Source: Nemertoderma westbladi (lineage: Eukaryota; Animalia; Xenacoelomorpha). Taken from it: a stretch of 53,538 nucleotides of DNA. Of the stretch, positions 2,736-48,989 are shown one piece after another (the first letter of the stretch is position 1; the number at the start of each line of letters is the position of its first letter). The stretch covers positions 1 through 53,538 of the forward strand of contig JAUCBJ010000457.1 in the NCBI GenBank assembly GCA_032718475.1, in the 5' to 3' direction. Both the position numbers and the translations under genes were made by a program. A model generated the notes under the pieces. The model had not been told where the DNA came from. It did not search any database and saw only the letters and a program-made list of their open reading frames with translations.

Positions 2736-3477
2736 AACTCCAGCTGAACTTGGACCACCTACCATTAGCACTGACAGCATTAGATCGTAACTCCAGCTGA
2801 ACTTGGACCACCTACCATTAGCACTGACAGCATTAGATCGTAACTCCAGCTGAACTTGGACCACCTACCATTAGCACTGACAGCATTAGATCGTAACTCC
2901 AGCTGAACTTGGACCACCTACCATTAGCACTGACAGCATTAGATCGTAACTCCAGCTGAACTTGGACCACCTACCATTAGCACTGACAGCATTAGATCGT
3001 AACTCCAGCTGAACTTGGACCACCTACCATTAGCACTGACAGCATTAGATCGTAACTCCAGCTGAACTTGGACCACCTACCATTAGCACTGACAGCATTA
3101 GATCGTAACTCCAGCTGAACTTGGACCACCTACCATTAGCACTGACAGCATTAGATCGTAACTCCAGCTGAACTTGGACCACCTACCATTAGCACTGACA
3201 GCATTAGATCGTAACTCCAGCTGAACTTGGACCACCTACCATTAGCACTGACAGCATTAGATCGTAACTCCAGCTGAACTTGGACCACCTACCATTAGCA
3301 CTGACAGCATTAGATCGTAACTCCAGCTGAACTTGGACCACCTACCATTAGCACTGACAGCATTAGATCGTAACTCCAGCTGAACTTGGACCACCTACCA
3401 TTAGCACTGACAGCATTAGATCGTAACTCCAGCTGAACTTGGACCACCTACCATTAGCACTGACAGCATTAGATCGT
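2736..3477 (-). repeat. 53-bp tandem array, 14 apparently identical copies of the VPS52 exon-10 3' end plus donor site
   Basis: Minus-strand unit ACGATCTAATGCTGTCAGTGCTAATG|GTAGGTGGTCCAAGTTCAGCTGGAGTT; 742 bp = 14 x 53. Confidence 0.98.
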
Positions 3478-3655
3478 AGTTGTTGATAAGGAACACGAGT
3501 TGCTCTTTCCGGTACTGGAACTCGGCAGCCATCCGCAGTATGAATCCCTCCACCTCCAACTGTAACTCCGCCAAGGCCTTGTGGACTCTTTCGTCCGGGT
3601 AGCTTTCGTTGATACCAACAACAGCCCCCGAGAACTCTGCGTATCTACGGGTTAC
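3452..3655 (-). CDS. VPS52: VPS52 coding exon 10 (gene continues beyond window start)
   Basis: GCAG acceptor; VTRRYAEFSGAVVGINESYPDERVHKALAELQLEVEGFILRMAAEFQYRKEQLVFLINNYDLMLSVLM; ATG|GTAGGT donor; 204 nt. Confidence 0.96.
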
Positions 3656-4087
3656 CTGCGGTAAACGGAAGTTTCTTACGTTTATTAATAATTGTAAAAA
3701 TTAGAAAATCAAAACCAAGCCTTCTTACTCAGAAGATATTATTATTATTACAAACTCAAATATTATACATGTGAGATGAAGTTATGAAAAGTTTCAACTT
3801 GAAAGGATTATAAACGAAATATGAGCAGACTTGCCATGATAAATGTTGCCCTCTTGCGGCAGACAAATTAACTGCAGACGGCCTAAAAGGTTTCAAAAAT
3901 ATCTGCTGGCCGGAATAAGTTCGAAATGATCTTAAACACAATAATGGGGGTAAGTTTTCACTTTCAGACAATTATACCCTTTACGGACAGACGGTGGAGG
4001 ACGGCAAATGGATTATCGTCCTCGAGAAGCGCAAGACGCAGACTTAATTTTATGGCGGTTGCTATACAGGTTAACTTCTATACTCAC

Positions 4088-4211
4088 GTAATGGGGTCTC
4101 ACGTCAATGGAACCCAGTTTCATTGCATCCGTATCTCTTATACTTTTGATATTTAGTTCCAGAATATATTGAAATCGCGGCCACAACAATTCTAGAAGTC
4201 CTTCCCAGTAT
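4088..4211 (-). CDS. VPS52: VPS52 coding exon 9
   Basis: CCTTAG acceptor; YWEGLLELLWPRFQYILELNIKSIRDTDAMKLGSIDVRPHY; GTGAGT donor. Confidence 0.96.
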
Positions 4212-4311
4212 CTAAGGACAAACAAACGATGACGTAACATTAGATAACTTAGAGGATCTTTGATAAAGATTGTCTTTATGGCAGCCGGAACTAACAGATA
4301 AGGTCACTTAC

Positions 4312-4430
4312 TTGTCAAGAGCGGGAACCTGTCGTTTGTGCATCAATACGCGATACCGGTTAATAATGTGAATCGAGAGGAGTAGTGCTATAGAATCGAA
4401 GCAATCGTTAGTGTACACCTCCATGTGTTT
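4312..4430 (-). CDS. VPS52: VPS52 coding exon 8 (its first 29 nt are the last unit of the 45-bp satellite)
   Basis: TTTTTATTCCTTTTAG acceptor; KHMEVYTNDCFDSIALLLSIHIINRYRVLMHKRQVPALD matches VPS52 KHLDSYLADCYDAIAVFLCIHIV...VPALD; AA|GTAAGT donor; phases fit exons 7 and 9. Confidence 0.93.
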
Positions 4431-7400
4431 CTAAAAGGAATAAAAACAATCGTTAGTGTACACCCCCATGTGTTTCTAAAAGGAATAAAAACAATCGTTA
4501 GTGTACACCTCCATGTGTTTCTAAAAGGAATAAAAACAATCGTTAGTGTGCACCTCCATGTGTTTCTAAAAAAGAAATAAAAACAATCGTTAGTGTACAC
4601 CACCATGTGTTTCTAAAAGGAATAAAAACAATCGTTAGTGTACACCTCCATGTGTTTCTAAAAGGAATAAAAACAATCGTTAGTGTACACCTCCATGTGT
4701 TTCTAAAAGGAATAAAAACAATCGTTAGTGTGCACCTCCATGTGTTTCTAAAAGGAATAAAAACAATCGTTAGTGTACACCTCCATGTGTTTCTAAAAAA
4801 GAAATAAAAACAATCGTTAGTGTACACCACCATGTGTTTCTAAAAGGAATAAAAACAATCGTTAGTGTACACCTCCATGTGTTTCTAAAAGAAATAAAAA
4901 CAATCACACCTCCATGTGTTTCTAAAAGGAATAAAAACAATCGTTAGTGTACACCTCCATGTGTTTCTAAAAGGAATAAAAACAATCGTTAGTGTGCACC
5001 TCCATGTGTTTCTAAAAGGAATAAAAACAATCGTTAGTGTACACCTCCATGTGTTTCTAAAAAAGAAATAAAAACAATCGTTAGTGTACACCACCATGTG
5101 TTTCTAAAAGGAATAAAAACAATCGTTAGTGTACACCTCCATGTGTTTCTAAAAGAAATAAAAACAATCGTTAGTGTACACCTCCATGTGTTTCTAAAAG
5201 GAATAAAAACAACATTGCTAATGTACAGTACACCTCCATGTGTTTCTAAAAGGAATAAAAACAATCGTTAGTGTACACCCCCATGTGTTTCTAAAAGGAA
5301 TAAAAACAATCGTTAGTGTACACCTCCATGTGTTTCTAAAAGGAATAAAAACAATCGTTAGTGTGCACCTCCATGTGTTTCTAAAAGGAATAAAAACAAT
5401 CGTTAGTGTACACCTCCATGTGTTTCTAAAAGGAATAAAAACAATCGTTAGTGTGCACCTCCATGTGTTTCTAAAAGGAATAAAAACAATCGTTAGTGTA
5501 CACCTCCATGTGTTTCTAAAAAAGAAATAAAAACAATCGTTAGTGTACACCACCATGTGTTTCTAAAAGGAATAAAAACAATCGTTAGTGTACACCTCCA
5601 TGTGTTTCTAAAAGAAATAAAAACAATCACACCTCCATGTGTTTCTAAAAGGAATAAAAACAATCGTTAGTGTACACCTCCATGTGTTTCTAAAAGGAAT
5701 AAAAACAATCGTTAGTGTGCACCTCCATGTGTTTCTAAAAGGAATAAAAACAATCGTTAGTGTACACCTCCATGTGTTTCTAAAAAAGAAATAAAAACAA
5801 TCGTTAGTGTACACCACCATGTGTTTCTAAAAGGAATAAAAACAATCGTTAGTGTACACCTCCATGTGTTTCTAAAAGAAATAAAAACAATCGTTAGTGT
5901 ACACCTCCATGTGTTTCTAAAAGGAATAAAAACAATCGTTAGTGTACACCCCCATGTGTTTCTAAAAGGAATAAAAACAATCGTTAGTGTACACCTCCAT
6001 GTGTTTCTAAAAGGAATAAAAACAATCGTTAGTGTACACCCCCATGTGTTTCTAAAAGGAATAAAAACAATCGTTAGTGTACACCTCCATGTGTTTCTAA
6101 AAGGAATAAAAACAATCGTTAGTGTGCACCTCCATGTGTTTCTAAAAGGAATAAAAACAATCGTTAGTGTACACCTCCATGTGTTTCTAAAAGGAATAAA
6201 AACAATCGTTAGTGTGCACCTCCATGTGTTTCTAAAAGGAATAAAAACAATCGTTAGTGTACACCTCCATGTGTTTCTAAAAAAGAAATAAAAACAATCG
6301 TTAGTGTACACCACCATGTGTTTCTAAAAGGAATAAAAACAATCGTTAGTGTACACCTCCATGTGTTTCTAAAAGAAATAAAAACAATCACACCTCCATG
6401 TGTTTCTAAAAGGAATAAAAACAATCGTTAGTGTACACCTCCATGTGTTTCTAAAAGGAATAAAAACAATCGTTAGTGTGCACCTCCATGTGTTTCTAAA
6501 AGGAATAAAAACAATCGTTAGTGTACACCTCCATGTGTTTCTAAAAAAGAAATAAAAACAATCGTTAGTGTACACCACCATGTGTTTCTAAAAGGAATAA
6601 AAACAATCGTTAGTGTACACCTCCATGTGTTTCTAAAAGAAATAAAAACAATCGTTAGTGTACACCTCCATGTGTTTCTAAAAGGAATAAAAACAACATT
6701 GCTAATGTACAGTACACCTCCATGTGTTTCTAAAAGGAATATTAGTGTACACCCCCATGAGTGTTTCTAAAAGGAATAAAACAATCGTTAGTGTACACCT
6801 CCATGTGTTTCTAAAAGGAATAAAAACAATCGTTAGTGTGCACCTCCATGTGTTTCTAAAAGGAATAAAAACAATCGTTAGTGTACACCTCCATGTGTTT
6901 CTAAAAGGAATAAAAACAATATTGCTAATGTACAGTACACCTCCATGTGTTTCTAAAAGGAATATTAGTGTACACCCCCATGAGTGTTTCTAAAAGGAAT
7001 AAAACAATCGTTAGTGTACACCTCCATGTGTTTCTAAAAGGAATAAAAACAATCGTTAGTGTACACCACCATGTGTATCTAAAAGAAATAAAAACAATCG
7101 TTAGTGTACACCTCCATGTGTTTCTAAAAGGAATAAAAACAATATTGCTAATGTACAGTACACCTCCATGTGTTTCTAAAAGGAATATTAGTGTACACCC
7201 CCATGAGTGTTTCTAAAAGGAATAAAACAATCGTTAGTGTACACCTCCATGTGTTTCTAAAAGGAATAAAAACAATCGTTAGTGTGCACCTCCATGTGTT
7301 TCTAAAAGGAATAAAAACAATCGTTAGTGTACACCTCCATGTGTTTCTAAAAGGAATAAAAACAATATTGCTAATGTACAGTACACCTCCATGTGTTTCT

Positions 7401-10400
7401 AAAAGGAATATTAGTGTACACCCCCATGAGTGTTTCTAAAAGGAATAAAACAATCGTTAGTGTACACCTCCATGTGTTTCTAAAAGGAATAAAAACAATC
7501 GTTAGTGTGCACCTCCATGTGTTTCTAACAGGAATAAAAACAATCGTTAGTGTACACCTCCATGTGTTTCTAAAAGGAATAAAAACAATATTGCTAATGT
7601 ACAGTACACCTCCATGTGTTTCTAAAAGAAATAAAAACTTAGTGTACACCTCCATGAGTGTTTCTAAAAGGAATAAAACAATCGTTAGTGTACACCTCCA
7701 TGTGTTTCTAAAAGGAATAAAAACAATCGTTAGTGTGCACCTCCATGTGTTTCTAAAAGAAATAAAAACAATCGTTAGTGTACACCTCCATGTGTTTCTA
7801 AAAGGAATAAAAACAATCGTTAGTGTACACCACCATGTGTTTCTAAAAGGAATAAAAACAATATTGCTAATGTACAGTACACCTCCATGTGTTTCTAAAA
7901 GAAATAAAAACAATATTGCTAATGTACAGTACACCTCCATGTGTTTCTAAAAGGAATAAAAACAATATTGCTAATGTACAGTACACCTCCATGTGTTTCT
8001 AAAAGAAATAAAAACTTAGTGTACACCTCCATGAGTGTTTCTAAAAGGAATAAAACAATCGTTAGTGTACACCTCCATGTGTTTCTAAAAGGAATAAAAA
8101 CAATCGTTAGTGTGCACCTCCATGTGTTTCTAAAAGGAATAAAAACAATCGTTAGTGTACACCTCCATGTGTTTCTAAAAGGAATAAAAACAATATTGCT
8201 AATGTACAGTACACCTCCATGTGTTTCTAAAAGAAATAAAAACGTAGTGTACACCTCCATGAGTGTTTCTAAAAGGAATAAAACAATCGTTAGTGTACAC
8301 CTCCATGTGTTTCTAAAAGGAATAAAAACAATCGTTAGTGTGCACCTCCATGTGTTTCTAAAAGGAATAAAAACAATCGTTAGTGTACACCTCCATGTGT
8401 TTCTAAAAGGAATAAAAACAATATTGCTAATGTACAGTACACCTCCATGTGTTTCTAAAAGAAATAAAAACTTAGTGTACACCTCCATGAGTGTTTCTAA
8501 AAGGAATAAAACAATCGTTAGTGTACACCTCCATGTGTTTCTAAAAGGAATAAAAACAATCGTTAGTGTGCACCTCCATGTGTTTCTAAAAGGAATAAAA
8601 ACAATCGTTAGTGTACACCACCATGTGTTTCTAAAAGGAATAAAAACAATATTGCTAATGTACAGTACACTACACCTCCATGTGTTTCTAAAAGAAATAA
8701 AAACAATCGTTAGTGTACACCTCCATGAGTGTTTCTAAAAGGAATAAAACAATCGTTAGTGTACACCCCCATGTGTTTCTAAAAGGAATAAAAACAATCG
8801 TTAGTGTGCACCTCCATGTGTTTCTAAAAGGAATTAAAACAATCGTTAGTGTGCACCTCCATGTGTTTCTAAAAGGAATAAAAACAATCGTTAGTGTACA
8901 CCTCCATGTGTTTCTAAAAGGAATAAAAGCAATCGTTAGTGTGCACCTCCATGTGTTTCTAAAAGGAATAAAAACAATCGTTAGTGTACACCTCCATGTG
9001 TTTCTAAAAGGAATAAAAACAATCGTTAATGTGCACCTCCATGTGTTTCTAAAAGGAATAAAAACAATCGTTAGTGTACACCTCCATGTGTTTCTAAAAG
9101 GAATAAAAACAACCGTTAGTGTACACCTCCATGTGTTTCTAAAAGAAATAAAAACAATCGTTAGTGTACACCTCCATGTGTTTCTAAAAGGAATAAAAAC
9201 AATCGTCAGTGTACACCTCCATGTGTTTCTAAAAGGAATAAAAACAATCGTCAGTGTACACCCCCATGTGTTTCTAAAAGGAATAAAAACAATCGTTAGT
9301 GTGCACCTCCATGTGTTTCTAAAAGGAATTAAAACAATCGTTAGTGTGCACCTCCATGTGTTTCTAAAAGGAATAAAAACAATCGTTAGTGTACACCTCC
9401 ATGTGTTTCTAAAAGGAATAAAAGCAATCGTTAGTGTGCACCTCCATGTGTTTCTAAAAGGAATAAAAACAATCGTTAGTGTACACCTCCATGGGTTTCT
9501 AAAAGGAATAAAAACAATCGTTAGTGTACACCTCCATGTGTTTCTAAAAGGAATAAAAACAATCGTTAGTGTACACCTCCATGTGTTTCTAAAAGGAATA
9601 AAAACAATATTGCTAATGTACAGTACACCTCCATGTGTTTCTAAAAGGAATAAAAACAATCGTTAGTGTACACCTCCATGTGTTTCTAAAAGAAATAAAA
9701 ACTTAGTGTACACCTCCATGAGTGTTTCTAAAAGGAATAAAACAATCGTTAGTGTACACCTCCATGTGTTTCTAAAAGGAATAAAAACAATCGTTAGTGT
9801 GCACCTCCATGTGTTTCTAAAAGGAATAAAAACAATCGTCAGTGTACACCTCCATGTGTTTCTAAAAGGAATAAAAACAATCGTTAGTGTACACCTCCAT
9901 GGGTTTCTAAAAGGAATAAAAACAATCGTTAGTGTACACCTCCATGTGTTTCTAATTGGAATAAAAACAATCGTTAGTGTACACCTCCATGGGTTTCTAA
10001 AAGGAATAAAAACAATCGTTAGTGTACACCACCATGTTTTCTAAAAGGAATAAAAACAATCGTTAGTGTACACCTCCATGAGTGTTTCTAAAAGGAATAA
10101 AACAATCGTTAGTGTACACCTCCATGTGTTTCTAAAAGGAATAAAAACAATCGTTAGTGTACACCTCCATGTGTTTCTAAAAGGAATAAAAACAATCGTC
10201 AGTGTACACCTCCATGTGTTTCTAAAAGGAATAAAAACAATCGTTAGTGTACACCTCCATGAGTGTTTCTAAAAGGAATAAAACAATCGTTAGCGTACAC
10301 CTCCATGGGTTTCTAAAAGGAATAAAAACAATCGTTAGTGTACACCTCCATGTGTTTCTAAAAGGAATAAAAACAATCGTCAGTGTACACCTCCATGTGT

Positions 10401-13400
10401 TTCTAAAAAAGAAATAAAAACAATCGTTAGTGTACACAACCATGTGTTTCTAAAAAAAGAAATAAAAACAATCGTTAGTGTACACCACCATGTTTTCTAA
10501 AAGGAATAAAAACAATCGTTAGTGTACACCTCCATGAGTGTTTCTAAAAGGAATAAAAACAATCGTTAGTGTACACCTCCATGGGTTTCTAAAATGAATA
10601 AAAACAATCGTTAGTGTACACCTCCATGTGTTTCTAAAAGGAATAAAAACAATCGTTAGTGTACACCTCCATGTGTTTCTAAAAGGAATAAAAACAATCG
10701 TTAGTGTACACCTCCATGTGTTTCTAAAAGGAATAAAACAATGGCTAATGTACACCTCCATGTGTTTCTAAAAGGAATAAAAACAATGACTATAATGTAC
10801 ACATCGATGTGTTTCTAAAAGGAATAAAAACAATATTGCTAATGTACAGTACACCTCCATTTGTTTCTAAAAGAAATAAGAACAATCGTTAGTGTACACC
10901 ACCATGTGTCTCTAAAAGGAATACAAACAATCGTTAGTGTACACCTCCATGTGTTTCTAAAAGGAATAAAAACAATCGTTAGTGTGCACCTCCATGTGTT
11001 TCTAAAAGGAATAAAAACAATATTGCTAATGTACAGTACACCTCCATGTGTTTCTAAAAGAAATAAAAACAATCGTTAGTGTACACCTCCATGGTGTTTC
11101 TAAGAGGAATAAAACAATCGTTAGTGTACACCCCCATGTGTTTCTAAAAGGAATAAAAACAATGGCTAATGTACACATCGATGTGTTTCTAAAAGGAATA
11201 AAAACAATGGCTAATGTACACCACCATGTGTTTCTAAAAGGAATAAAAACAATCGTTAGTGTACACCTCCATGTGTTTCTAGAAGGAATAAAAACAATGG
11301 CTAATGTACACCACCCCACCATGTGTTTCTAAAAGGAATAAAAACAATGGCTAATGTACACCACCATGTGTCTCTAAAAGGAATAAAAACAATCGTTAGT
11401 GTACACCTCCATGTGTTTTTAAAAGGAATAAAAACAATGGCTAATGTACACCACCATGTGTCTCTAAAAGGAATAAAAACAATCGTTAGTGTACACCTCC
11501 ATGTGTTTTTAAAAGGAATAAAAACAATGGCTAATGTACACCACCATGTGTCTCTAAAAGGAATAAAAACAATCGTTAGTGTACACCTCCATGGTGTTTC
11601 TAAGAGGAATAAAACAATCGTTAGTGTACACCCCCATGTGTTTCTAAAAGGAATAAAAACAATGGCTAATGTACACATCGATGTGTTTCTAAAAGGAATA
11701 AAAACAATGGCTAATACACCTCCATGTGTTTCTAAAAGGAATAAAAACAATCGTTAGTGTACACCTCCATGTGTTTCTAGAAGGAATAAAAACAATGGCT
11801 AATGTACACCACCCCACCATGTGTTTCTAAAAGGAATAAAAACAATGGCTAATGTACACCACCATGTGTCTCTAAAAGGAATAAAAACAATCGTTAGTGT
11901 ACACCTCCATGGTGTTTCTAAGAGGAATAAAACAATCGTTAGTGTACACCCCCATGTGTTTCTAAAAGGAATAAAAACAATGGCTAATGTACACATCGAT
12001 GTGTTTCTAAAAGGAATAAAAACAATGGCTAATACACCTCCATGTGTTTCTAAAAGGAATAAAAACAATCGTTAGTGTACACCTCCATGTGTTTCTAGAA
12101 GGAATAAAAACAATGGCTAATGTACACCACCCCACCATGTGTTTCTAAAAGGAATAAAAACAATGGCTAATGTACACCACCATGTGTCTCTAAAAGGAAT
12201 AAAAACAATCGTTAGTGTACACCTCCATGTGTTTTTAAAAGGAATAAAAACAATGGCTAATGTACACCACCATGTGTCTCTAAAAGGAATAAAAACAATC
12301 GTTAGTGTACACCTCCATGTGTTTCTAAAAGGAATAAAAACAATGACTAATGTACATCTCCATGTGTTTCTAAAAGGAATAAAAACAATGGCTAATGTAC
12401 AACTCCATGTGTTTCTAAAAGGAATAAAAACAATGGCTAATATACACCTCCACCTCCATGAGTTTCTAAAAGGAATAAAAACAATGGCTAATATACACCT
12501 CAATGTGTTTCTAAAAGGAATAAAAACAATGGCTCATGTACACCTCCATGTGTTTCTAAAAGGAATAAAAACAATGGCTAATATACACCTCCACCTCCAT
12601 GTGTTTCTAAAAGGAATAAAAACAATGGCTAATGTACACCTCCATGTGTTTCTAAAAGGAATAAAAACAATGGCTAATATACACCTCCACCTCCATGTGT
12701 TTCTAAAAGGAATAAAAACAATGGCTAATGTACACCTCCATGTGTTTCTAAAAGGAATAAAGACAATGGCTAATATACACCTCCACCTCCATGTGTTTCT
12801 AAAAGGAATAAAAACAATGGCTAATGTACACCCCAATGTGTTTCTAAAAGGAATAAAAACAATGGCTCATGTACACCTCCATGTGTTTCTAAAAGGAATA
12901 AAAACAATGGCTAATATACACCTCCACCTCCATGTGTTTCTAAAAGGAATACAAACAATCGTTAGTGTACACCTCCATGTGTTTCTAAAAGGAATAAAAG
13001 CAATCGTTAGTGTGCACCTCCATGTGTTTCTAAAAGGAATAAAAACAATCGTTAGTGTACACCTCCATGTGTTTCTAAAAGGAATAAAAACAATCGTTAA
13101 TGTGCACCTCCATGTGTTTCTAAAAGGAATAAAAACAATCGTTAGTGTACACCTCCATGTGTTTCTAAAAGGAATAAAAACAACCGTTAGTGTACACCTC
13201 CATGTGTTTCTAAAAGAAATAAAAACAATCGTTAGTGTACACCTCCATGTGTTTCTAAAAGGAATAAAAACAATCGTCAGTGTACACCTCCATGTGTTTC
13301 TAAAAGGAATAAAAACAATCGTCAGTGTACACCCCCATGTGTTTCTAAAAGGAATAAAAACAATCGTTAGTGTGCACCTCCATGTGTTTCTAAAAGGAAT

Positions 13401-16400
13401 TAAAACAATCGTTAGTGTGCACCTCCATGTGTTTCTAAAAGGAATAAAAACAATCGTTAGTGTACACCTCCATGTGTTTCTAAAAGGAATAAAAGCAATC
13501 GTTAGTGTGCACCGCACCTCCATGTGTTTCTAAAAGGAATAAAAACAATCGTTAGTGTACACCTCCATGGGTTTCTAAAAGGAATAAAAACAATCGTTAG
13601 TGTACACCTCCATGTGTTTCTAAAAGGAATAAAAACAATCGTCAGTGTACACCTCCATGTGTTTCTAAAAGGAATAAAAACAATATTGCTAATGTACAGT
13701 ACACCTCCATGTGTTTCTAAAAGGAATAAAAACAATCGTTAGTGTACACCTCCATGTGTTTCTAAAAGAAATAAAAACTTAGTGTACACCTCCATGAGTG
13801 TTTCTAAAAGGAATAAAACAATCGTTAGTGTACACCTCCATGTGTTTCTAAAAGGAATAAAAACAATCGTTAGTGTGCACCTCCATGTGTTTCTAAAAGG
13901 AATAAAAACAATCGTCAGTGTACACCTCCATGTGTTTCTAAAAGGAATAAAAACAATCGTTAGTGTACACCTCCATGGGTTTCTAAAAGGAATAAAAACA
14001 ATCGTTAGTGTACACCTCCATGTGTTTCTAATTGGAATAAAAACAATCGTTAGTGTACACCTCCATGGGTTTCTAAAAGGAATAAAAACAATCGTTAGTG
14101 TACACCACCATGTTTTCTAAAAGGAATAAAAACAATCGTTAGTGTACACCTCCATGAGTGTTTCTAAAAGGAATAAAACAATCGTTAGTGTACACCTCCA
14201 TGTGTTTCTAAAAGGAATAAAAACAATCGTTAGTGTACACCTCCATGTGTTTCTAAAAGGAATAAAAACAATCGTCAGTGTACACCTCCATGTGTTTCTA
14301 AAAGGAATAAAAACAATCGTTAGTGTACACCTCCATGAGTGTTTCTAAAAGGAATAAAACAATCGTTAGCGTACACCTCCATGGGTTTCTAAAAGGAATA
14401 AAAACAATCGTTAGTGTACACCTCCATGTGTTTCTAAAAGGAATAAAAACAATCGTCAGTGTACACCTCCATGTGTTTCTAAAAAAGAAATAAAAACAAT
14501 CGTTAGTGTACACAACCATGTGTTTCTAAAAAAAGAAATAAAAACAATCGTTAGTGTACACCACCATGTTTTCTAAAAGGAATAAAAACAATCGTTAGTG
14601 TACACCTCCATGAGTGTTTCTAAAAGGAATAAAAACAATCGTTAGTGTACACCTCCATGGGTTTCTAAAATGAATAAAAACAATCGTTAGTGTACACCTC
14701 CATGTGTTTCTAAAAGGAATAAAAACAATCGTTAGTGTACACCTCCATGTGTTTCTAAAAGGAATAAAAACAATCGTTAGTGTACACCTCCATGTGTTTC
14801 TAAAAGGAATAAAACAATGGCTAATGTACACCTCCATGTGTTTCTAAAAGGAATAAAAACAATGACTATAATGTACACATCGATGTGTTTCTAAAAGGAA
14901 TAAAAACAATATTGCTAATGTACAGTACACCTCCATTTGTTTCTAAAAGAAATAAGAACAATCGTTAGTGTACACCACCATGTGTCTCTAAAAGGAATAC
15001 AAACAATCGTTAGTGTACACCTCCATGTGTTTCTAAAAGGAATAAAAACAATCGTTAGTGTGCACCTCCATGTGTTTCTAAAAGGAATAAAAACAATATT
15101 GCTAATGTACAGTACACCTCCATGTGTTTCTAAAAGAAATAAAAACAATCGTTAGTGTACACCTCCATGGTGTTTCTAAGAGGAATAAAACAATCGTTAG
15201 TGTACACCCCCATGTGTTTCTAAAAGGAATAAAAACAATGGCTAATGTACACATCGATGTGTTTCTAAAAGGAATAAAAACAATGGCTAATGTACACCAC
15301 CATGTGTTTCTAAAAGGAATAAAAACAATCGTTAGTGTACACCTCCATGTGTTTCTAGAAGGAATAAAAACAATGGCTAATGTACACCACCCCACCATGT
15401 GTTTCTAAAAGGAATAAAAACAATGGCTAATGTACACCACCATGTGTCTCTAAAAGGAATAAAAACAATCGTTAGTGTACACCTCCATGTGTTTTTAAAA
15501 GGAATAAAAACAATGGCTAATGTACACCACCATGTGTCTCTAAAAGGAATAAAAACAATCGTTAGTGTACACCTCCATGTGTTTTTAAAAGGAATAAAAA
15601 CAATGGCTAATGTACACCACCATGTGTCTCTAAAAGGAATAAAAACAATCGTTAGTGTACACCTCCATGGTGTTTCTAAGAGGAATAAAACAATCGTTAG
15701 TGTACACCCCCATGTGTTTCTAAAAGGAATAAAAACAATGGCTAATGTACACATCGATGTGTTTCTAAAAGGAATAAAAACAATGGCTAATACACCTCCA
15801 TGTGTTTCTAAAAGGAATAAAAACAATCGTTAGTGTACACCTCCATGTGTTTCTAGAAGGAATAAAAACAATGGCTAATGTACACCACCCCACCATGTGT
15901 TTCTAAAAGGAATAAAAACAATGGCTAATGTACACCACCATGTGTCTCTAAAAGGAATAAAAACAATCGTTAGTGTACACCTCCATGGTGTTTCTAAGAG
16001 GAATAAAACAATCGTTAGTGTACACCCCCATGTGTTTCTAAAAGGAATAAAAACAATGGCTAATGTACACATCGATGTGTTTCTAAAAGGAATAAAAACA
16101 ATGGCTAATACACCTCCATGTGTTTCTAAAAGGAATAAAAACAATCGTTAGTGTACACCTCCATGTGTTTCTAGAAGGAATAAAAACAATGGCTAATGTA
16201 CACCACCCCACCATGTGTTTCTAAAAGGAATAAAAACAATGGCTAATGTACACCACCATGTGTCTCTAAAAGGAATAAAAACAATCGTTAGTGTACACCT
16301 CCATGTGTTTTTAAAAGGAATAAAAACAATGGCTAATGTACACCACCATGTGTCTCTAAAAGGAATAAAAACAATCGTTAGTGTACACCTCCATGTGTTT

Positions 16401-21041: not shown

Positions 21042-21044
21042 GTC

Positions 21045-21371: not shown

Positions 21372-21377
21372 GCCCAG

Positions 21378-22675: not shown

Positions 22676-22701
22676 ACAGCGGGATGACGCATTGTGCAAT
22701 C

Positions 22702-22707: not shown

Positions 22708-22741
22708 CGTATTAATGGACCCTATTAATGGTACAACAGGT

Positions 22742-33839: not shown

Positions 33840-34006
33840 CTTAACTTCGGTCTTCTGGGCCGCATGGGGTACTATGATTGGCGCTTCTAAGTCTTTAGTT
33901 ATGACGTCACCTCTGTTCCCCAGAGTAAATATTGTTCCTTTATTTTTTAACGACGGTTTATAAAACACACTTCTCCGAGACGAATCCTCTTCTCCCATCA
34001 AATCGT
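33840..34006 (-). CDS. VPS52: VPS52 coding exon 6
   Basis: TTAG acceptor; DLMGEEDSSRRSVFYKPSLKNKGTIFTLGNRGDVITKDLEAPIIVPHAAQKTEVK; AAG|GTACGT donor. Confidence 0.95.
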
Positions 34007-34216: not shown

Positions 34217-34371
34217 CTTTATCGGCCACTTCCTCGTATTGTAATTTCATTAAACGACTTGTGTAGGCCCGGAAGTAACTGTAATACATCTTACTAGTTG
34301 TGTCCATGTAAACGTCGCGAATTTCTTTAGCGATAACGCGCTCGTGAGCCAAGAGAAATTCATAGAAAAAT
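34217..34371 (-). CDS. VPS52: VPS52 coding exon 5
   Basis: TTTTAG acceptor; FFYEFLLAHERVIAKEIRDVYMDTTSKMYYSYFRAYTSRLMKLQYEEVADK; G|GTTTGT donor. Confidence 0.95.
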
Positions 34372-38000: not shown

Positions 38001-41000
38001 TTTTTATATTAAATTGTAATTCGTACATTATAAGCAAAGTCTATGGGGACATTGTCAGACATACTTTAAAATTTATCTTTGAAATTTAAATCATTTGTTC
38101 ACCCAGCCATGCAATGGCTGGGTGAACCACCAAAATATTAAGAGATGAAATCCGCAAAGCCTTTAAATACATTATAGGGTGGTGGGCGGGGCTAGTGGTT
38201 AGTGTTTATACATAGTTAGTTAATGATTGTATATGATTGTATATGTATATGATTGTATATATAGCGAGTTGTTAAAAAAGGGAATGGATATAACTATATG
38301 TTACAAAAGACTATGAATTTAGATCTATCGAGTTACGAATATACACTATCGCCACCTTTTAGCGTAGCGTAGGGGAGGAATACAATTAGTTGGAATCTAT
38401 GTATGGGGAATATAGCGGAACAACTATGTACGAGATACTTCTTCGACTAATAGAACAATAACTATAGCTCTTTAAACTAATTCTAGAACTACATTTACCT
38501 ACTAAAAAAACAATTAAATATAAATATAATAATAATAATAATAATAATAATACAAATTAATAATACTAATTAATGAAAAATAAATGATAAAAAAACTATC
38601 ATCACTGGATGATAGAGGATGTTTTTTAATCGCCGCAAGGCGAAAAAGGGCTTTAGCCCTCACTAACCACTACCAATTCCTCACCCAATACTAAAATCCG
38701 GGAATGTGATAGAAAGGGGGTATACTTGGGCGAGTTAGGGTATAAGGGGGCGCTTAGGGGGGAAGCCGACCATCCCAGTAGGTGGATAGACCCCCTATTA
38801 ACTTTCTAAATTTTGATTTCGAGCGAATCCGACCGACGGTTTTCGAGTTGGGCCCAATGGAACGTTTTAGAAATTTGAATTTCCCGCCAAACGCTACAGC
38901 CAAACTGGCAATAGATGGAGACTAGCGGCCAACGGGATCGCGTAGGGGGTATAGATGTTAGTCCAGCTCATTCTTTTTTTGGAACGACTCGACCTATAGG
39001 GGCCGATCGGTAGCTGATCGAACACGATCTTTACGATCTTTGGCGAAATACGACCGGAAGGAGTGGGAATTTGAGAAAAGTTTGAAAGTAGAAAATGTTC
39101 CTCACCCCCGAATTATGCTAGACGGACCCGATAAAAATTTGAAAAAAATTAATTCTAGGGGGTCTACGGGGCCAACGAAGCTTTCCGATTGGACGATATT
39201 ATTTTCGCCTATTACTACGGGAAGGAACGGTTTTAAGTTAAAACATGTACAAGAGATATGGTCGGGAGGCTCGAGCTCTATCCAACGGAAGCGGTCCCGG
39301 AATCGTAAATTAAGAAGTTCTCGAGATATAGAGGATAATTAACGAGTCGTTAAAAAATGCAGTAATTAGCAATTAGCGCTAATTAAGAGCGAATTAATTA
39401 ATCGAATCTCGAAATTAACGGTGCCAATCGATGGGAAACAACGAGAGGAGCTCGCCAATTTTTTAAATTTTCGAAAAGACCCAGCGGAAGCCGAGATAAA
39501 TGGATTTTCGTAAAATCGGGGTCCCGACCACCAAGTCGAATATCGGCGTCGAATCGCCAACTTTGGGAAGTAGGCGAAAATATACCGAAAAAGCAAAACG
39601 AGCGATATTGATTTAAAATTCGAAACTTTTTGGTCGATACGGGTTCGCTAGTGGACGATATACACTATTTTAGTCAATTTATCCAAAAGGGTCATTTTTA
39701 TGATCTTTGATCATGATCTTTATGATCTTTGGCCTAAAGCATGGAATAAGAGTATTTTTATATTAAATTGTAATTCGTACATTATAAGCAAAGTCTATGG
39801 GGACATTTTCAGACATACTTTAAAGTTTATCTTTGAAATTTAAATCATTTGTTCACCCAGCCATGCAATGGCTGGGTGAACCACCAAAATATTAAGCGAT
39901 GAAATCCGCAAAGCCTTTAAATACGTTATAGGGTGGTGGGTGGGGCTAGTGGTTAGTGTTTATACATAGTTAGGTAATGATTGTATATATAGCGAGTTGT
40001 TAAGAAAGGGAATGGGATATAATTTTATGTTACAAAAGACTATGAATTTAGATCTATAGAGTTGTTAAAAAAGGGAATGGGATATAATTTTATGTTACAA
40101 AAGACTATGAATTTAGATCTATAGAGTTACGAATATACACTAACGCCACCTTTTAGCGTAGCGTAGGGGAGGAATACAATTAGTTGGAATCTATGTATGG
40201 GGAATATAGCGGAACAACTATGTACGAGATACTTCTTCGACTAATAGAACAATAACTATAGCTCTTTAAACTAATTCTAGAACTGCATTTACCTACTAAA
40301 AAAAACAATTAAATACTAATTAATGAAAAATAAATGATAAAAAAACTATCATCACTGGATGATAGAGGATGTTTTTTAACCGCCGCAAGGCGGAAAAGGG
40401 CTTTAGCCCTCACTAACCACTACCACCGCCTCACCCAATTCAATAAACGGGGAACTATATACGGAAAAGGGTATACTTGGGCGAGTTAGGGTATAAGGGA
40501 GCGCTTAGGGGGGAAGCCGACTATCCCAGTAGGTGGATAGACCCCCTATTAACTTTCTAAATTTTGATTTCGAGCGAATCCGACCGACGGTTTTCGAGTT
40601 GGGCCCAATGGAACGTTTTAGAAATTTGAATTTCCCGCCAAAAGCTACAGCCGAGCTACAGCCAAACTGGCTATAGATGGAGACTAGCGGCCAACGGGAT
40701 CGCGTAGGGGGTATAGATGTTAGTCCAGCTCATTCTTTTTTTGGAACGACTCGACCTATAGGGGCCGATCGGTAGCTGATCGAACACGATCTTTACGATC
40801 TTTGGCGAAATACGACCGGAAGGAGTGGGAATTTGAGAAAAGTTTGAAAGTAGAAAATGTTCCTCATCCCCGAATTATGCTAGACGGACCCGATAAAAAT
40901 ATGAAAAAAATTAATTCTAGGGGGTCTACGGGGCCAACGAAGCTTTCCGATTGGACGATATTATTTTCGCCTATTACTACGGGAAGGAACGGTTTTAAGT

Positions 41001-44000
41001 TAAAACATGTACAAGAGATATGGTCGGGAAGCTCGAGCTCTATCCAACGGAAGCGGTCCCGGGATCGTAAATTAAGAAGTTCTCGAGATATAGAGGAAAA
41101 TTAACGAGTCGTTAAAAAATGCAGCAATTAGCAATTAGCGCTAATTAAGAGCGAATTAATTAATCGAATCTCGAAATTAACGGTGCCAATCGATGGGAAA
41201 CAACGAGAGGAGCTCGCCAATTTTTTAAATTTTCAAAAAGACCCAGCGGAAGCCGAGATAAATGGATTTTCGTGAAATCGGGGTCCCAACCGCCAAGTCG
41301 AATATCAGCATCGAATCGCCACCTTTGGGAAGTAGGCGAAAATATACCGAAAAAGCAAAACGAGCGATATTGATTTAAAATTCGAAACTTTTTGGTCGAC
41401 ACGGGCTCGCTAGTGGATGATATACACTATTTTAGTCAATTTGTCCAAAAGGGTCATTTTTATTATCTTTGATCATGATCTTTATGATCTTTGGCCTAAA
41501 GCATGGAATATGAGTATTTTCATATTTTATATTAATTCATACATTGTACGCAAAGTCTATGGGGACATTTCCAGACATACTTTCATATTTATCTTTGAAA
41601 TTTAAATCATTTGTTCACCCAGCCATGCAATGGCTGGGTGAACCACCAAAATATTAAGAGATGAAATCCGCAAAGCCTTTAAATACATTATAGGGTGGTG
41701 GGTGGGGCTAGTGGTTAGTGTTTATACATAGTTAGGTAATGATTGTATATATAGCGAGTTGTTAAAAAAGGGAATGGATATAACTTTATGTTACAAAAGA
41801 CTATGAATTTAGATCTATCGAGTTACGAATATACTCTATCGCCACCTTTTAGCGTAGCGTAGGGGAGGAATACAATTAGTTGGAATCTATGTGTGGGGAA
41901 TATAGCGGAACAACTATGTACGAGATACTTCTTCGACTTCTACAGTAGAACAATTAGTATAGTTCTTTAAACTAATTTTAGAACTCCGTTTACCTACTAA
42001 AAAACAAATAAATATAATTAAATTTATAATAATAATAATAATAATAACAAGGTCTACTAAAATATACAAGCTATACTGATCAAGAATAAATGATAAAAAA
42101 ACGATATCACTGGATGATAGAGGATGTTTTTTAATCGCCGCAAGGCGAAAAAGGGCTTTAGCCCTTACTAACCACTACCAATTCCTCACCCAATACTAAA
42201 ATCCGGGAATGTGATAGAAAGGGGGTATACTTGGGCGAGTTAGGGTATAAGGGGGCGCTTAGGGGGGAAGCCGACCATCCCAGTAGGAGGATAGACCCCC
42301 TATTAACTTTCTAAATTTTGATTTCGAGCGAATCCGACCGACGGTTTTCGAGTTGGGCCCAATGGAACGTTTTAGAAATTTGAATTTCCCGCCAAACGCT
42401 ACAGCCAAACTGGCAATAGATGGAGACTAGCGGCCAACGGGATCGCGTAGAGGGTATAGATGTTAGTCCAGCTCATTCTTTTTTTGGAACGACTCGACCT
42501 ATAGGGGCCGATCGGTAGCTGATCGAACACGATCTTTACGATCTTTGGCGAAATACGACCGGAAGGAGTGGGAATTTGGGAAAAGTTTGAAAGTAGAAAA
42601 TGTTCCTCACCCCCGAATTATGCTAGACGGACCCGATAAAAATTTGAAAAAAATTAATTCTAGGGGGTCTACGGGGCCAACGAAGCTTTCCGATTGGACG
42701 ATATTATTTTCGCCTATTACTACGGGAAGGAACGGTTTTAAGTTAAAACATGTACAAGAGATATGGTCGGCAAGCTCGAGCTCTATCCAACGGAAGCGGT
42801 CCCGGAATCGTAAATTAAGAAGTTCTCGAGATATAGAGGAAAATTAACGAGTCGTTAAAAAATGCAGTAATTAGCAATTAGCGCTAATTAAGAGCGAATT
42901 AATTAATCGAATCTCAAAATTAACGGTGCCAATCGATGGGAAACAACGAGAGGAGCTCGCCAATTTTTTAAATTTTCGAAAAGACCCAGCGGAAGCCGAG
43001 ATAAATGGATTTCCGTAAAATTGGGGTCCCGACCACCTAGTCGAATATCGGAGGCGAATCACCACCTTTGGGAAGTAGGCGAAAATATACCGAAAAAGCA
43101 AAATGAGCGATATTGATTTAAAATTCGAAACTTTTTGGTCGATACGGGTTCGCTAGTGGACGATAAACACAATTTTAGTCAATTTATCCAAAAGGGTCAT
43201 TTTTATGATCTTTGATCATGATCTTTGTGATCTTTGGCCTAAAGCATGGAATAAGAGTATTTTTATATTAAATTGTAATTCGTACATTATAAGCAAAGTC
43301 TATGGGGACATTTTCAGACATACTTTAAAGTTTATCTTTGAAATTTAAATCATTTGTTCACCCAGCCATGCAATGGCTGGGTGAACCACCAAAATATTAA
43401 GCGATGAAATCCGCAAAGCCTTTAAATACGTTATAGGGTGGTGGGTGGGGCTAGTGGTTAGTGTTTATACATAGTTAGGTAATGATTGTATATATAGCGA
43501 GTTGTTAAAAAAGGGAATGGGATATAATTTTATGTTACAAAAGACTATGAATTTAGATCTATAGAGTTACGAATATACACTAACGCCACCTTTTAGCGTA
43601 GCGTAGGGGAGGAATACAATTAGTTGGAATCTATGTATGGGGAATATAGCGGAACAACTATGTACGAGATACTTCTTCGACTAATAGAACAATAACAAAC
43701 TATAGCTCTTTAAACTAATTCTAGAACTGCATTTACCTACTAAAAAAAACAATTAAATACTAATTAATGAAAAATAAATGATAAAAAAACTATCATCACT
43801 GGATGACAGAGGTTGTTTTTTAACCGCCGCAAGGCGGAAAAGGGCTTTAGCCCTCACTAACAACTATGGATTCCTCACCACGTATAATAATCCATGTTGT
43901 TTAGTCAGAAAAGGGTATAGTTGGGCGAGTTAGGGTATAAGGGGACGCTTAGGGGGGAAGCCAACCATCCCAGTAGGTGGATAGACCCCCTATTAACTTT

Positions 44001-45535
44001 CTAAATTTTGATTTCGAGCGAATCCGACCGACAGTTTTCGAGTTGGGGCCAATTGAACGTTTTTGAAATTTGAATTTCCCGCCAAACGCTACAGCCAAAC
44101 TGGCTATAGATGGAGACTAGCGGCCAACGGGATCGCGTAGGGGGTATAGATGTTAGTCCAGCTCATTCTTTTTTTGGAACGACTCGACCTATAGGGGCCG
44201 ATCGGTAGCTGATCGAACACGATCTTTACGATCTTTGGCGAAATACGACCGGAAGGAGTGGGAATTTGAGAAAAGTTTGAAAGTAGAAAATGTTCCTCAC
44301 CCCCGAATTATGCTAGACGGACCCGATAAAAATTTGAAAAAAATTAATTCTAGGGGGTCTACGGGGCCAACGAAGCTTTCCGATTGGACGATATTATTTT
44401 CGCCTATTACTACGGGAAGGAACGGTTTTAAGTTAAAACATGTACAAGAGATATGGTCGGGAAGCTCGAGCTCTATCCAACGGAAGCGGTCCCGGGATCG
44501 TAAATTAAGAAGTTCTCGAGATATAGAGGAAAATTAACGAGTCGTTAAAAAATGCAGTAATTAGCAATTAGCGCTAATTAAGAGCGAATTAATTAATCGA
44601 ATCTCGAAATTAACGGTGCCAATCGATGGGAAATAACGAGAGGAGCTCGCCAATTTTTTAAATTTTCGAAAAGACCCAGCGGAAGCCGAGATAAATGGAT
44701 TTTCGTAAAATCGGGGTCCCGACCACCAAGTCGAATATCAGCGTCGAATCATCACCTTTGGGAAGTAGGCGAAAATATACCGAAAAAGCAAAATGAGCGA
44801 TATTGATTTAAAATTCGAAACTTTTTGGTCGATACGGGTTCGCTAGTGGACGATAAACACAATTTTAGTCAATTTGCCCAAAAGGGTCATTTTTATGATC
44901 TTTGATCATGATCTTTATGATCTTTGGCCTAAAGCATGGAATATGAGTATTTTCATATTTTATATTAATTAATACAATGTACGCAAAGTCTATGGGGACA
45001 TTTCCAGACATACTTTCACATTTATCTTTGAAATTTAAATCATTTGTTCACCCAGCCATGCAATGGCTGGGTGAACCACCCAAATATTAAGCGATGAAAT
45101 CCACAAAGCCTTTAAATACATTATAGGGTGGTGGGTGGGGCTAGTGGTTAGTGTTTATACATAGTTAGGTAATGATTGTATATATAGCAATTTGTTAAAA
45201 AAGGGAATGGATATAGCTTTATGTTACATAAGACAGTAAATTTTGATTTTCCGAGTCACGAATATACACCATGGTCACCATTTAGAATAGGCGAGAATAC
45301 AACTAATTCGAATCCATGTGTTGGGAATATAGTGGAACAACTACATACAAGATACTTCTTCGACTACTAGAACCATTAACTATAGCTCTTCAAACTAATT
45401 CTAGAACAACTTTTACCTACTAAAAAAACCAATAAAATATAATTAAACCTATATAATAATAAAAATATAATAATAATAAGGCCAATTAAGCTACACTGAT
45501 CAAGAATAAATGATAAAAAAACGATATCACTGGAT
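35097..45535. repeat. Macrosatellite: six head-to-tail copies of a ~1.75-kb non-coding unit, probably TE-derived, in VPS52 intron 4
   Basis: Unit starts (GATGAYAGAGG) at ~35097, 36853, 38608, 40358, 42113 and 43802; the array ends at ATATCACTGGAT ~45535. Confidence 0.97.
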
Positions 45536-46169
45536 TTCTGACAAAAGACTCGCATCTACCTACAACGAATTAAAAATAACTGAATCGGTCTGTACGAATG
45601 TATTGAGTATATAGAGTTGAGTGGTACTAGCTTTGCTATTAGCTGCACTCCTTTCCCTTAACCCGTATTTCTGTTTGGATAGGCCATATTTGGTGTATTT
45701 TTTATAATTCGTAGTATTTGAAATTATTATTTTGTTTTATGAATTAAAAATAATTAATGTTTGAATGTCATTCACAAATAATAATGTGTAATCAAATCAT
45801 ATCAATAAATGGCGGCGCATGTTCAACGAATCCGACTAAAGACTGTAGAAATTTCGCTCTTTAAAATTGGGTCCCTTAGTAGTATTGTATTTAAATCACT
45901 CCTATTCTAGCCAATCATTAGCGAGAGGCCAATCACATTAGAGATTAGTGCCTACGACAACCCAGCGGTATAATGCTATGGGAACTTCTGCTGGGACAGT
46001 CAAGTCTGCAGGCCTCTCTGCCTTATAGGTAACAGCCAAGAGAGAGAAGGTTTCGGGTTGGCGCCGGTGTTTCGTGTTTCAAACATTCACCGATAATTTT
46101 ACTTTTATCAAACAATAAATTCCATAATTTCCAACATTAGCACTATATTACTAGAGAATTATAACTTAC

Positions 46170-46421
46170 CGAACTTTAAGCAACGATTGTTGTGGCATCT
46201 GGTAATTGGCCATCGGTTTCTTAAACTTCATAATATTTGACAACAAATAGTCCCGTATCTTGGACAATGCTTTAATTTTGAGTTTCTCTATAACATCCTT
46301 AACATCCTGCGAGCTGGCGGCTTCCTTGAAGGATTGCTCTTTAACGAAGTTTATCTTGTGATTGAGTTCGTGGAGTTGTTCCAGAAAGTATCGATCAGTT
46401 ACTGGAGTGTCTAAAATGTGT
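46170..46421 (-). CDS. VPS52: VPS52 coding exon 4
   Basis: TTTCAG acceptor; HILDTPVTDRYFLEQLHEL...FKKPMANYQMPQQSLLKV; CG|GTAAGT donor; 252 nt, phase 2-2. Confidence 0.95.
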
Positions 46422-46661
46422 CTGAAATAGGCGGAAACAATCAATTTATATTTCGATGTGATCAAGCGCACACGGATTTGAGATCAGTTGTAACACCGAC
46501 TCAGCGATTTATTAATGTAATCGGTATTATAGTACCGAAGCTAGTGGAGTGCTTCAAACCGTTACCTCAAAAATCATTTGAACTTTATTTCTTAACAAAA
46601 TTGGAAATTGGAACGGTTTGCCTAATGAAATAAAAAAACATAGATAATAAACATTATATTA

Positions 46662-48280
46662 AAAGTGTCCACTGTCCGGGGTGCATCTGGACAGTGTCCA
46701 CTGTCCGGGGTGCATCTGGACAGTGTCCACTGTCCGGGGTGCATCTGGACAGTGTCCACTGTTCGGGGTGCATCTGGACAGTGGCCACTGTCCGGGGTGC
46801 ATCTGGAAAGTGTCCACTGTCCGGGGTGCATCTGGACAGTGGCCACTGTCCGGGGTGCATCTGGACAGTGGCCACTGTCCGGGGTGCATCTGGACAGTGG
46901 CCACTGTCCGGGGTGCATCTGGAAAGTGTCCACTGTCCGGGGTGCATCTGGACAGTGTCCACTGTCCGGGGTGCATCTGGACAGTGTCCACTGTCCGGGG
47001 TGCATCTGGACAGTGGCCACTGTCCGGGGTGCTTCTGGACAGTGGCCACTGTCCGGGGTGCATCTGGACAGTGGCCACTGTCCGGGTTGCATCTGGACAG
47101 TGGCCACTGTCCGGGGTGCATCTGGACAGTGGCCACTGTCCGGGGTGCTTCTGGACAGTGGCCACTGTCCGGGGTGCATCTGGAAAGTGTCCACTGTCCG
47201 GGGTGCATCTGGACAGTGGCCACTGTCCGGGGTGCATCTGGACAGTGGCCACTGTCCGGGGTGCATCTGGAAAGTGTCCACTGTCCGGGGTGCATCTGGA
47301 CAGTGTCCACTGTCCGGGGTGCATCTGGACAGTGTCCACTGTCCGGGGTGCATCTGGACAGTGGCCACTGTCCGGGGTGCATCTGGACAGTGGCCACTGT
47401 CCGGGGTGCATCTGGAAAGTGTCCACTGTCCGGGGTGCATCTGGACAGTGGCCACTGTCCGGGGTGCATCTGGACAGTGGCCACTGTCCGGGGTGCATCT
47501 GGACAGTGTCCACTGTCCGGGGTGCATCTGGACAGTGGCCACTGTCCGGGGTGCATCTGGACAGTGTCCACTGTCCGGGGTGCATCTGGACAGTGGCCAC
47601 TGTCCGGGGTGCATCTGGACAGTGGCCACTGTCCGGGGTGCATCTGGACAGTGGCCACTGTCCGGGGTGCATCTGGAAAGTGTCCACTGTCCGGGGTGCA
47701 TCTGGACAGTGTCCACTGTCCGGGGTGCATCTGGACAGTGTCCACTGTCCGGGGAGCATCTGGACAGTGGCCACTGTCCGGGGTGCATCTGGACAGTGGC
47801 CACTGTCCGGGGTGCATCTGGAAAGTGTCCACTGTCCGGGGTGCATCTGGACAGTGGCCACTGTCCGGGGTGCATCTGGACAGTGGCCACTGTCCGGGCT
47901 GCATCTGGAAAGTGTCCACTGTCCGGGGTGCATCTGGACAGTGTCCACTGTCCGGGGTGCATCTGGACAGTGTCCACTGTCCGGGGTGCATCTGGACAGT
48001 GTCCACTGTCCGGGGTGCATCTGGACAGTGGCCACTGTCCGGGGTGCATCTGGAAAGTGTCCACTGTCCGGGGTGCATCTGGACAGTGGCCACTGTCCGG
48101 GGTGCATCTGGACAGTGGCCACTGTCCGGGGTGCATCGGGACAGTGGCCACTGTCCGGGGTGCATCTGGACGGTGGCCACTGTCCGGGGTGCATCTGGAC
48201 AGTGGCCACTGTCCGGGGTGCATCTGGACAGTGGCCACTGTCCGGGGTGCATCTGGACGGTGGCCACTGTCCGGGGTGCA
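46662..48280. repeat. 29-bp GC-rich palindromic minisatellite, ~56 copies, in VPS52 intron 3
   Basis: Unit GTGKCCACTGTCCGGGGTGCATCTGGACA; the G variant creates the perfect 18-bp palindrome GGACAGTGGCCACTGTCC. Confidence 0.98.
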
Positions 48281-48316
48281 ATAGGATATTGGACACTGTC
48301 CTGTTGCACCCCGGAG

Positions 48317-48989
48317 TCAGTTACACTCACAACTCACAGTATCATGAACTCAGTTACGTTCACAACTTACAGTATCATGAGCTCAGTTACACTCACAACT
48401 TACAGTATCATGAGCTCAGTTACGCTCACAACTTACAGTATCATGAGCTCAGTTACACTCACAACTTACAGTATCATGAGCTCAGTTACACTCACAACTT
48501 ACAGTATCATGAGCTCAGTTACACTCACAACTTACAGTATCATGAGCTCAGTTACGCTCACAACTTACAGTATCATGAGCTCAGTTACACTCACAACTTA
48601 CAGTATCATGAGCTCAGTTACACTCACAACTTACAGTATCATGAGCTCAGTTACACTCACAACTTACAGTATCATGAGCTCAGTTACGCTCACAACTTAC
48701 AGTATCATGAGCTCAGTTACACTCACAACTTACAGTATCATGAGCTCAGTTACACTCACAACTTACAGTATCATGAGCTCAGTTACGCTCACAACTTACA
48801 GTATCATGAGCTCAGTTACACTCACAACTTACAGTATCATGAGCTCAGTTACGCTCACAACTTACAGTATCATGAGCTCAGTTACACTCACAACTTACAG
48901 TATCATGAGCTCAGTTACACTCACAACTTACAGTATCATGAGCTCAGTTACACTCACAACTTACAGTATCATGAGCTCAGTTACACTCA
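48317..48989 (-). repeat. 33-bp tandem array, 20 copies of the VPS52 exon-3 3' end plus donor site
   Basis: Minus-strand unit GAGTGTAACTGAGCTCATGATACT|GTAAGTTGT; donors from 48964 to 48337 at 33-bp spacing. Confidence 0.98.

Follow-up and report, generated by a model that had tools for sequence, protein, structure and literature searches.

How does a gene keep long tandem arrays that copy its own splice sites, and does the position of such arrays over exon edges point to a process aimed at these places? The question is raised by the VPS52 gene of the xenacoelomorph Nemertoderma westbladi, the first ten exons of which lie on the minus strand of a 53,538-nt stretch of DNA (GenBank assembly GCA_032718475.1, contig JAUCBJ010000457.1, positions 1 to 53,538; hereafter the window). 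A sequence-only reading of this stretch had reported that three of the six short-unit arrays in the gene have a unit lying across a real splice site, and had proposed either that junctions are targeted for amplification or that strict exon definition and nonsense-mediated decay make such arrays tolerable or even regulatory. The analysis described below indicates that the three arrays are probably neutral minisatellites of a repeat-prone gene that are tolerated through positional choice of splice sites.

Three arrays in VPS52 repeat a splice junction

Tandem Repeats Finder was utilized for array finding and returned six arrays of more than 10 copies in the window (Table 1). Unit anatomy together with an exon model of the gene, in which exons are numbered as in the sequence-only reading, confirmed that three of these straddle the exon-3 donor, the exon-8 acceptor and the exon-10 donor. 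The 33-bp unit consists of the end of exon 3 and its donor, the 45-bp unit of the acceptor and the start of exon 8, and the 53-bp unit of the end of exon 10 and its donor. Make-up and copy numbers came out close to those reported, with 24 exonic and 9 intronic nt repeated 20 times, 29 and 16 nt repeated about 340 times and 25 and 28 nt repeated 14 times, the last split becoming 27 and 26 nt if 2 shared nt are assigned to the exon. The exon parts of the units encode conserved Vps52 residues, with Y575 and D576 found in 71 of 71 homologues and K435 and M183 in 64 of 71 each, which identifies the exon as the source from which the array was copied. Searches with each of the six units matched no place in the window outside the unit's own array; the births of the three junction arrays were therefore independent, and a mobile source common to the units was ruled out on the same grounds. 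Hairpin-driven birth was rejected as well, as dimers of all six units fold no better than shuffles (z -1.13 to 1.13). With the arrays masked, the window contains nine two-copy tandem duplications with a period of 10-150, none of which lies on a VPS52 junction.

Tandem DNA, that is the six arrays and a set of ~1.75-kb units in intron 4, makes up 77% of the gene span seen. Counted in this way four of the seven large arrays touch no junction. The ~1.75-kb units are possibly derived from a mobile element. Read on the gene strand, the 23-bp unit contains a CAG resembling an acceptor and, five bases from it, an AAG|GTA resembling a donor, at a place without a known exon; these splice-like signals are probably due to chance, a lost or poison exon being the alternative. 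In the 40-bp unit, read by eye on the gene strand, a TAG is preceded at about 30 nt by a branch-like motif, though the closest real junction lies 217 nt away. Within 46664-48330 many units of the 29-bp array contain an 18-bp palindrome, and this array joins the far edge of the 33-bp array via a short inverted copy, so that this edge has been rearranged. Introns 3, 7 and 10 also contain unrelated unique DNA, including a nested gene.

The VPS52 model comprises ten exons with nine GT-AG introns between them and a stop-free frame of 583 codons. By tblastn, full-length homologues match every exon from 2 to 10, and five of the six exons scanned against Pfam match Vps52_CC or Vps52_C, exon 2 being the exception. 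Exon 1, which has no homologue match by tblastn and was outside the Pfam scan set, is the least supported exon. Eight of the nine junctions align free of insertions in all 71 homologues, and junction 4 has an insertion in 1 of 71. A search with exon 4 returned 124 proteins, the named ones of which were mostly animal VPS52 homologues at up to 78% identity. No match to homologues was found by tblastn past exon 10 inside the window, hence exon 11 lies outside of it. In a quick tree of 33 rows, built with 32 of 120 listed homologues, the protein fell into no supported group; its top identity was 69%, to Branchiostoma. Four of the introns measure only 100-432 nt.

Table 1. Tandem arrays, VPS52 exons and nested gene in the window
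Feature	Position	Strand	Description
23-bp array	1280-1731		x19.8; intron 10; spans no known junction
53-bp donor array	2735-3478	-	x14.0; identical copies; 25 nt exon 10 + 28 nt intron 10; 13 decoy GT donors
45-bp acceptor array	4402-20283	-	x347.8 (Tandem Repeats Finder), ~340 units; 16 nt intron 7 + 29 nt exon 8
40-bp array	23586-33113		x239.7; intron 6; spans no junction
Six tandem units of ~1.75 kb	35097-45525		90-95% alike; fill intron 4 head-to-tail; no junction
29-bp array	46664-48301		x56.5; intron 3; abuts far edge of 33-bp array; spans no junction
33-bp donor array	48317-48989	-	x20.4; 24 nt exon 3 + 9 nt intron 3
VPS52 exon 1, coding part	51150-51348	-	Exon model; ATG at 51348
VPS52 exon 2	50807-51003	-	Exon model; tblastn, 60-70% identity to homologues; no Pfam match
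VPS52 exon 3	48965-49140	-	Exon model; Vps52_CC, E 3e-17; ends with the 24 nt repeated in the 33-bp unit
VPS52 exon 4	46170-46421	-	Exon model; Vps52_CC, E 9.9e-24
VPS52 exon 5	34217-34371	-	Exon model; tblastn match
VPS52 exon 6	33840-34006	-	Exon model; tblastn match
VPS52 exon 7	23214-23369	-	Exon model, Pfam scan; joined straight to exon 8 in spliced contig
VPS52 exon 8	4312-4430	-	Exon model; Vps52_C, E 4.6e-11; spliced contig
VPS52 exon 9	4088-4211	-	Exon model; spliced contig skipping 100 and 432 nt
VPS52 exon 10	3452-3655	-	Exon model; Vps52_C, E 3.4e-23; spliced contig; ends with the 25 nt repeated in the 53-bp unit
Nested major-facilitator (MFS_1) transporter gene	20574-22675	+	Antisense in VPS52 intron 7, between 45-bp array and exon 7

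Decoy splice sites and the reading frame

The claim that only the copy adjoining unique exon sequence gives a valid protein held throughout, as all 19 decoy donors of exon 3, all 306 decoy acceptors of exon 8 and all 13 decoy donors of exon 10 lead to a premature stop. The narrower claim, made for the consensus units, was that the stop falls within one unit. Every decoy donor retains GT and meets a stop inside the first unit; of the 306 decoy acceptors, 221 are stopped within one unit and the rest later. These stops arise automatically from the geometry of the units, through GTAA at the donors and an in-frame TAG at the acceptors, and hence give no sign of selection or design. The decoy donors of exon 3 lie downstream of the true donor at 48964. 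In the 45-bp array 307 of 339 parsed acceptor sites retain AG, that is the true site at 4430 and the decoys, which are spread over 16 kb and all lie upstream of it; no other AG position in this array opens a frame. Selection against decoys near exon 8 was looked for in the 45-bp array and was not seen. Counting the true acceptor, the 35 sites closest to the exon all retain AG and 32 of them retain a branch-like motif.

The branch-point consensus is YNYTRAY. In the main subtype of the 45-bp unit the exon-derived part matches this consensus, with the A of the match some 23 nt upstream of the following AG. The motif is present at the true acceptor, occurs together with AG at 178 of the 339 sites and decays with distance from the exon. 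Because the unit holds just 16 nt of native intron, the real exon-8 acceptor, judging from its sequence, now probably uses a branch point from copied exon. Recursive splice sites, in which an acceptor AG directly abuts GT, are not formed by the arrays: in most units of the 45-bp array the acceptor has AA after it, and the GT of the donor arrays has no abutting acceptor. Junction arrays of this kind can mislead splice prediction and read mapping.

Sequencing runs: splice-site use and presence of the arrays

Four of six listed sequencing runs (X1-X4) were compared over positions 3390-4480, a stretch that reaches into the 45- and 53-bp arrays. X4 is recorded as 'DNA?' and none of the listed runs is recorded as RNA. 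X4 yielded a single spliced contig of 2,731 nt that joins exons 7-8-9-10, skipping the 100-nt and 432-nt introns as modelled. In this contig exon 8 is joined at 4430 straight to sequence identical with the end of exon 7 (window positions 23214-23243), and exon 10 is left at the first donor (3452) into ERTADESKES, which was read by hand and is in line with the homologues at this point. Accordingly, the exon-adjacent exon-8 acceptor and exon-10 donor are the ones used in this contig. No contig of decoy form was found for exons 7-10 in X4, which is one run from another sample with unseen alleles and in which contigs drop rare forms.

Both arrays were found in the DNA runs X1, X2 and X3, which come from two studies. 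The 53-bp unit appears as a cyclic contig of 83 nt at a depth relative to the flank of 8.1 in X1, 1.3-2.4 in X2 and 12.8 in X3, as compared to 13.5 expected from the window. The length of the 53-bp array thus differs between alleles, as measured by depth and for this array only. For the 45-bp array the summed depth relative to the flank was 936 in X1, 841 in X2 and 34 in X3, values that over- or undercount and show only that there are many copies; unit variants of the window recur in X1 and X2. X3 agrees with the window at every position over 983 nt, and the window may derive from it. X1 belongs to the other study and, with 6 flank positions unlike those of the window, is independent of it. 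X2 and X3 are recorded as one sample, yet their alleles differ (at least 4 differences in X2 and none in X3 over 3449-4431), as does their 53-bp depth, so that the sample record may cover more than one individual.

The arrays belong to a described class of minisatellites

The sequence-only reading, made without searches, had known of no described system of this kind. Such systems are on record, among them the 'mirages' of amphioxus (PMC3087553, PMC3902484) and a repeat in human CBS, and the VPS52 arrays belong to the mirage class. The description of the class is taken from these later accounts and not from the original 2002 paper. Mirages were named at Adh3 and are tandem repeats over exon-intron boundaries, on donor and acceptor sides, with units of 10-160 bp; they are unstable in length and compatible with normal splicing, and how they are generated is called unclear (PMC3087553). 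They occur in the globins BflGb6 and BflGb9, with somatic instability reported for Adh3 (PMC3087553), and also in troponin C and PGBD5 (PMC3902484). The three VPS52 arrays likewise have units tens of bases long that lie over an exon-intron boundary, two of these boundaries being confirmed by the spliced contig, and repeat its splice signals (GT 19/19 and 13/13, AG 307/339); both donor and acceptor sides are represented and copy number varies in the 53-bp array. As to splicing, which is undisturbed in mirages, the observation for VPS52 is one canonical contig for exons 7-10, from one run of another sample, and it concerns two of the three arrays. The VPS52 arrays differ from mirages in that they reside in another animal lineage and in that the acceptor array has about 340 units over 16 kb as opposed to 3-6 units in BflGb6.

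Close parallels are also found in human genes. The 37-bp variable number tandem repeat (VNTR) of F7 intron 7 presents 5-9 identical donors after the exon, of which only the most upstream is used in mammalian cells, by oriented scanning (PMC1557585). As in VPS52, its first unit spans the exon-intron donor and identical donors then follow; it is unlike VPS52 in being confined to the donor side, in having few copies and in being the one array of its gene. The 31-bp VNTR of CBS, c.1444_1467+7(16_21), by its name holds 24 nt of exon and 7 nt of intron in 16-21 copies (PMC2630376), which is almost the anatomy of the 33-bp array. In CBS 844ins68 an intron-exon junction is duplicated and the distal copy wins (PMC2630376); unlike the VPS52 arrays this is a case of two copies and no array. 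Repeats at exon-intron boundaries have furthermore been surveyed in human segmental duplications (PMC2812944). In the Rogers model introns are gained by tandem duplication of a proto-splice site (PMC3087553, PMC2891723, PMC2812944), and here too tandem duplication copies AG/GT signals and repeats become intronic. The VPS52 duplications, in contrast, copy the edge of an existing intron and leave exon-intron structure unchanged. Intron gain from a proto-splice site was rejected for VPS52, whose units include intron and whose introns 3, 7 and 10 hold unrelated unique DNA.

What stands out is scale, with about 300 near-identical acceptors before the real one versus 3-21 copies in the compared cases. 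The arrays are likely harmless and unusually large examples of a known repeat type, and the locus offers a clean, very large case of a type that is described yet little studied. The 16-kb acceptor array constitutes a natural test of 3' splice-site choice and of the strictness of exon definition.

Growth of the acceptor array

In the 45-bp array mismatches per unit to the genuine junction rise with distance (Spearman 0.45), being 0.44 close to the exon and 3.67 at the opposite end, as measured on the 226 of 338 units that are exactly 45 nt long. The array contains 69 distinct unit types arranged in a gradient as well as an exact internal duplication of 2,777 nt at a lag of 4,076. This drift and the duplication would be consistent with an array that grew by unequal exchange while its original copy stayed fixed at the exon. 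Two subtypes of the unit differ at three linked positions; at two of these 159 units are of one kind and 67 of the other, with 2 intermediates. The second subtype dominates the far end of the array and may keep old intron sequence, although later mutation explains it as well. Should it be old intron sequence, an imperfect 12-nt repeat 45 nt apart would have seeded the first duplication.

Is junction spanning more frequent than chance?

The null model was uniform placement on a locus in which each array was collapsed to one unit, leaving 13,975 nt with 19 junctions. The probability that at least three of six arrays span junctions was 0.0017, rising to 0.0023 when exon-internal duplications were left out and to as much as 0.0056 when the nested gene was counted in; it fell to 0.0003-0.0005 when at least 9 nt were demanded on both sides of the junction. 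These values assume present-day intron DNA, and some introns carry inverted-repeat or dispersed elements. For intron DNA of 4, 3 or 2 kb at the time of array birth an approximate formula gave P of about 0.045, 0.09 and 0.21. The statistic concerns a single locus, in a window that was chosen post hoc because of its pattern. The earlier statement that three hits look non-random therefore holds on the collapsed locus but weakens with shorter introns and with the way the window was picked. Plain chance would need either shorter introns at birth or selection of the window among many. Since P depends strongly on intron length at birth and the window was picked post hoc, the clustering of junction arrays at this locus is suggestive and is not evidence of targeting. 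No paper testing genome-wide junction enrichment was found, a weak negative as most subscription journals were outside the search. A true genome-wide excess over a proper null would suggest that mutation favours exon edges, which would bear on how introns grow and are gained.

Origin and tolerance of the arrays

In the reading that we favour, short stretches over an exon edge and its splice signal would have been duplicated by ordinary slippage or unequal exchange, the same process that presumably gave birth to the four arrays away from junctions, and the arrays would then have grown by unequal exchange. They would be tolerated because splice sites are chosen by position: the spliceosome would pick the copy touching unique exon, through exon definition or scanning, and nonsense-mediated decay would clear rare splicing errors. 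Survival of the acceptor array may further have been aided by the branch-point-like motif that the exon-derived part of the preceding unit supplies about 23 nt before AG, as the unit itself holds only 16 nt of native intron. The tolerance half of the sequence-only proposal thus agrees with the X4 contig at the exon-8 and exon-10 sites, with the stop met at every decoy and with positional choice in human F7 (PMC1557585). Several points weigh against this account. The evidence from RNA consists of a single contig in one run of a different sample, with unseen alleles and with rare forms lost from contigs, and read support is confined to the 45- and 53-bp arrays, the two that were compared with the runs. 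There is no clear long microhomology at the births, with 2 nt at the 53-bp array and rearranged far edges at the 33- and 45-bp arrays. Finally, three of six arrays on junctions is improbable under uniform placement on the present collapsed locus (P 0.0017-0.0056).

This last figure, and the still lower one obtained with 9 nt on both sides, would be explained if small duplications arose preferentially at exon edges, the arrays still being neutral. Such a bias could result from recombination or repair that starts in conserved exon between divergent homologues, stalls and re-primes at the edge of homology, or from DNA lesions at junctions linked to transcription or splicing. The presence of amphioxus mirages in several genes, with a generating mechanism that their authors call unclear (PMC3087553), is in line with it as well. 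On the other hand P rises to 0.045-0.21 at 4 to 2 kb of intron DNA, and introns as short as the four of 100-432 nt do occur in the gene; the window was selected for its pattern, four of seven large arrays miss junctions and none of the three junction units forms an unusual DNA hairpin (z -0.41 to 1.13). We therefore regard the bias as unlikely, though worth keeping in mind. The same low expectation applies to its wider form, in which repeat-prone invertebrates would have an exon-edge duplication bias, for example where recombination leaving conserved exon meets divergent intron, and this locus would be an extreme product, with 306 decoy acceptors, many with a copied-exon branch point, and the last acceptor picked purely by its distance to the next donor.

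A regulatory role, with decoys sending transcripts to nonsense-mediated decay or slowing splicing such that copy number tunes VPS52 output, appears very improbable. The decoys are identical or nearly so to the true sites and all yield premature stops, and the 53-bp depth varies between runs, which would provide variation to act on. Yet the one X4 contig is of canonical form, the stops follow automatically from unit geometry and the branch-like motif decays away from the exon; the pseudo-sites of F7 are silent (PMC1557585) and amphioxus mirages, in the portions of the accounts available, come without aberrant mRNAs (PMC3087553, PMC3902484). We give hardly any credence to the arrays or most of their length being an assembly artefact. 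The exact internal duplication in the 45-bp array might reflect a mis-join, the copies of the 53-bp array are all 100% identical and the summed 45-bp depth in X3 is just 34 times the flank. Against this, both tested arrays occur in three DNA runs from two studies, X1 being independent by its 6 flank differences; the 53-bp depth in X3 is close to that of the assembly (12.8 versus 13.5), X1 and X2 have the 45-bp unit at hundreds of times flank depth, with unit variants of the window recurring in them, and the 69 unit types of the 45-bp array form a gradient.

Other elements in the window

The first intron of the nested MFS_1 gene has the same 9 nt at both ends, and no clear GT donor was seen for its second intron. 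An identical short sequence at both ends of an intron is often linked to recent intron gain. Two elements, at 49359-50263 and 51621-52581, are bounded by inverted repeats with arms of 76 and 202 nt that are 80-83% alike, and one dispersed 200-nt repeat is present at 2013-2202 and 53143-53343. These elements and the dispersed repeat are likely non-autonomous DNA transposons. Just after the nested gene, at about 22790-22860, a stretch resembles by eye a short repeat derived from tRNA.

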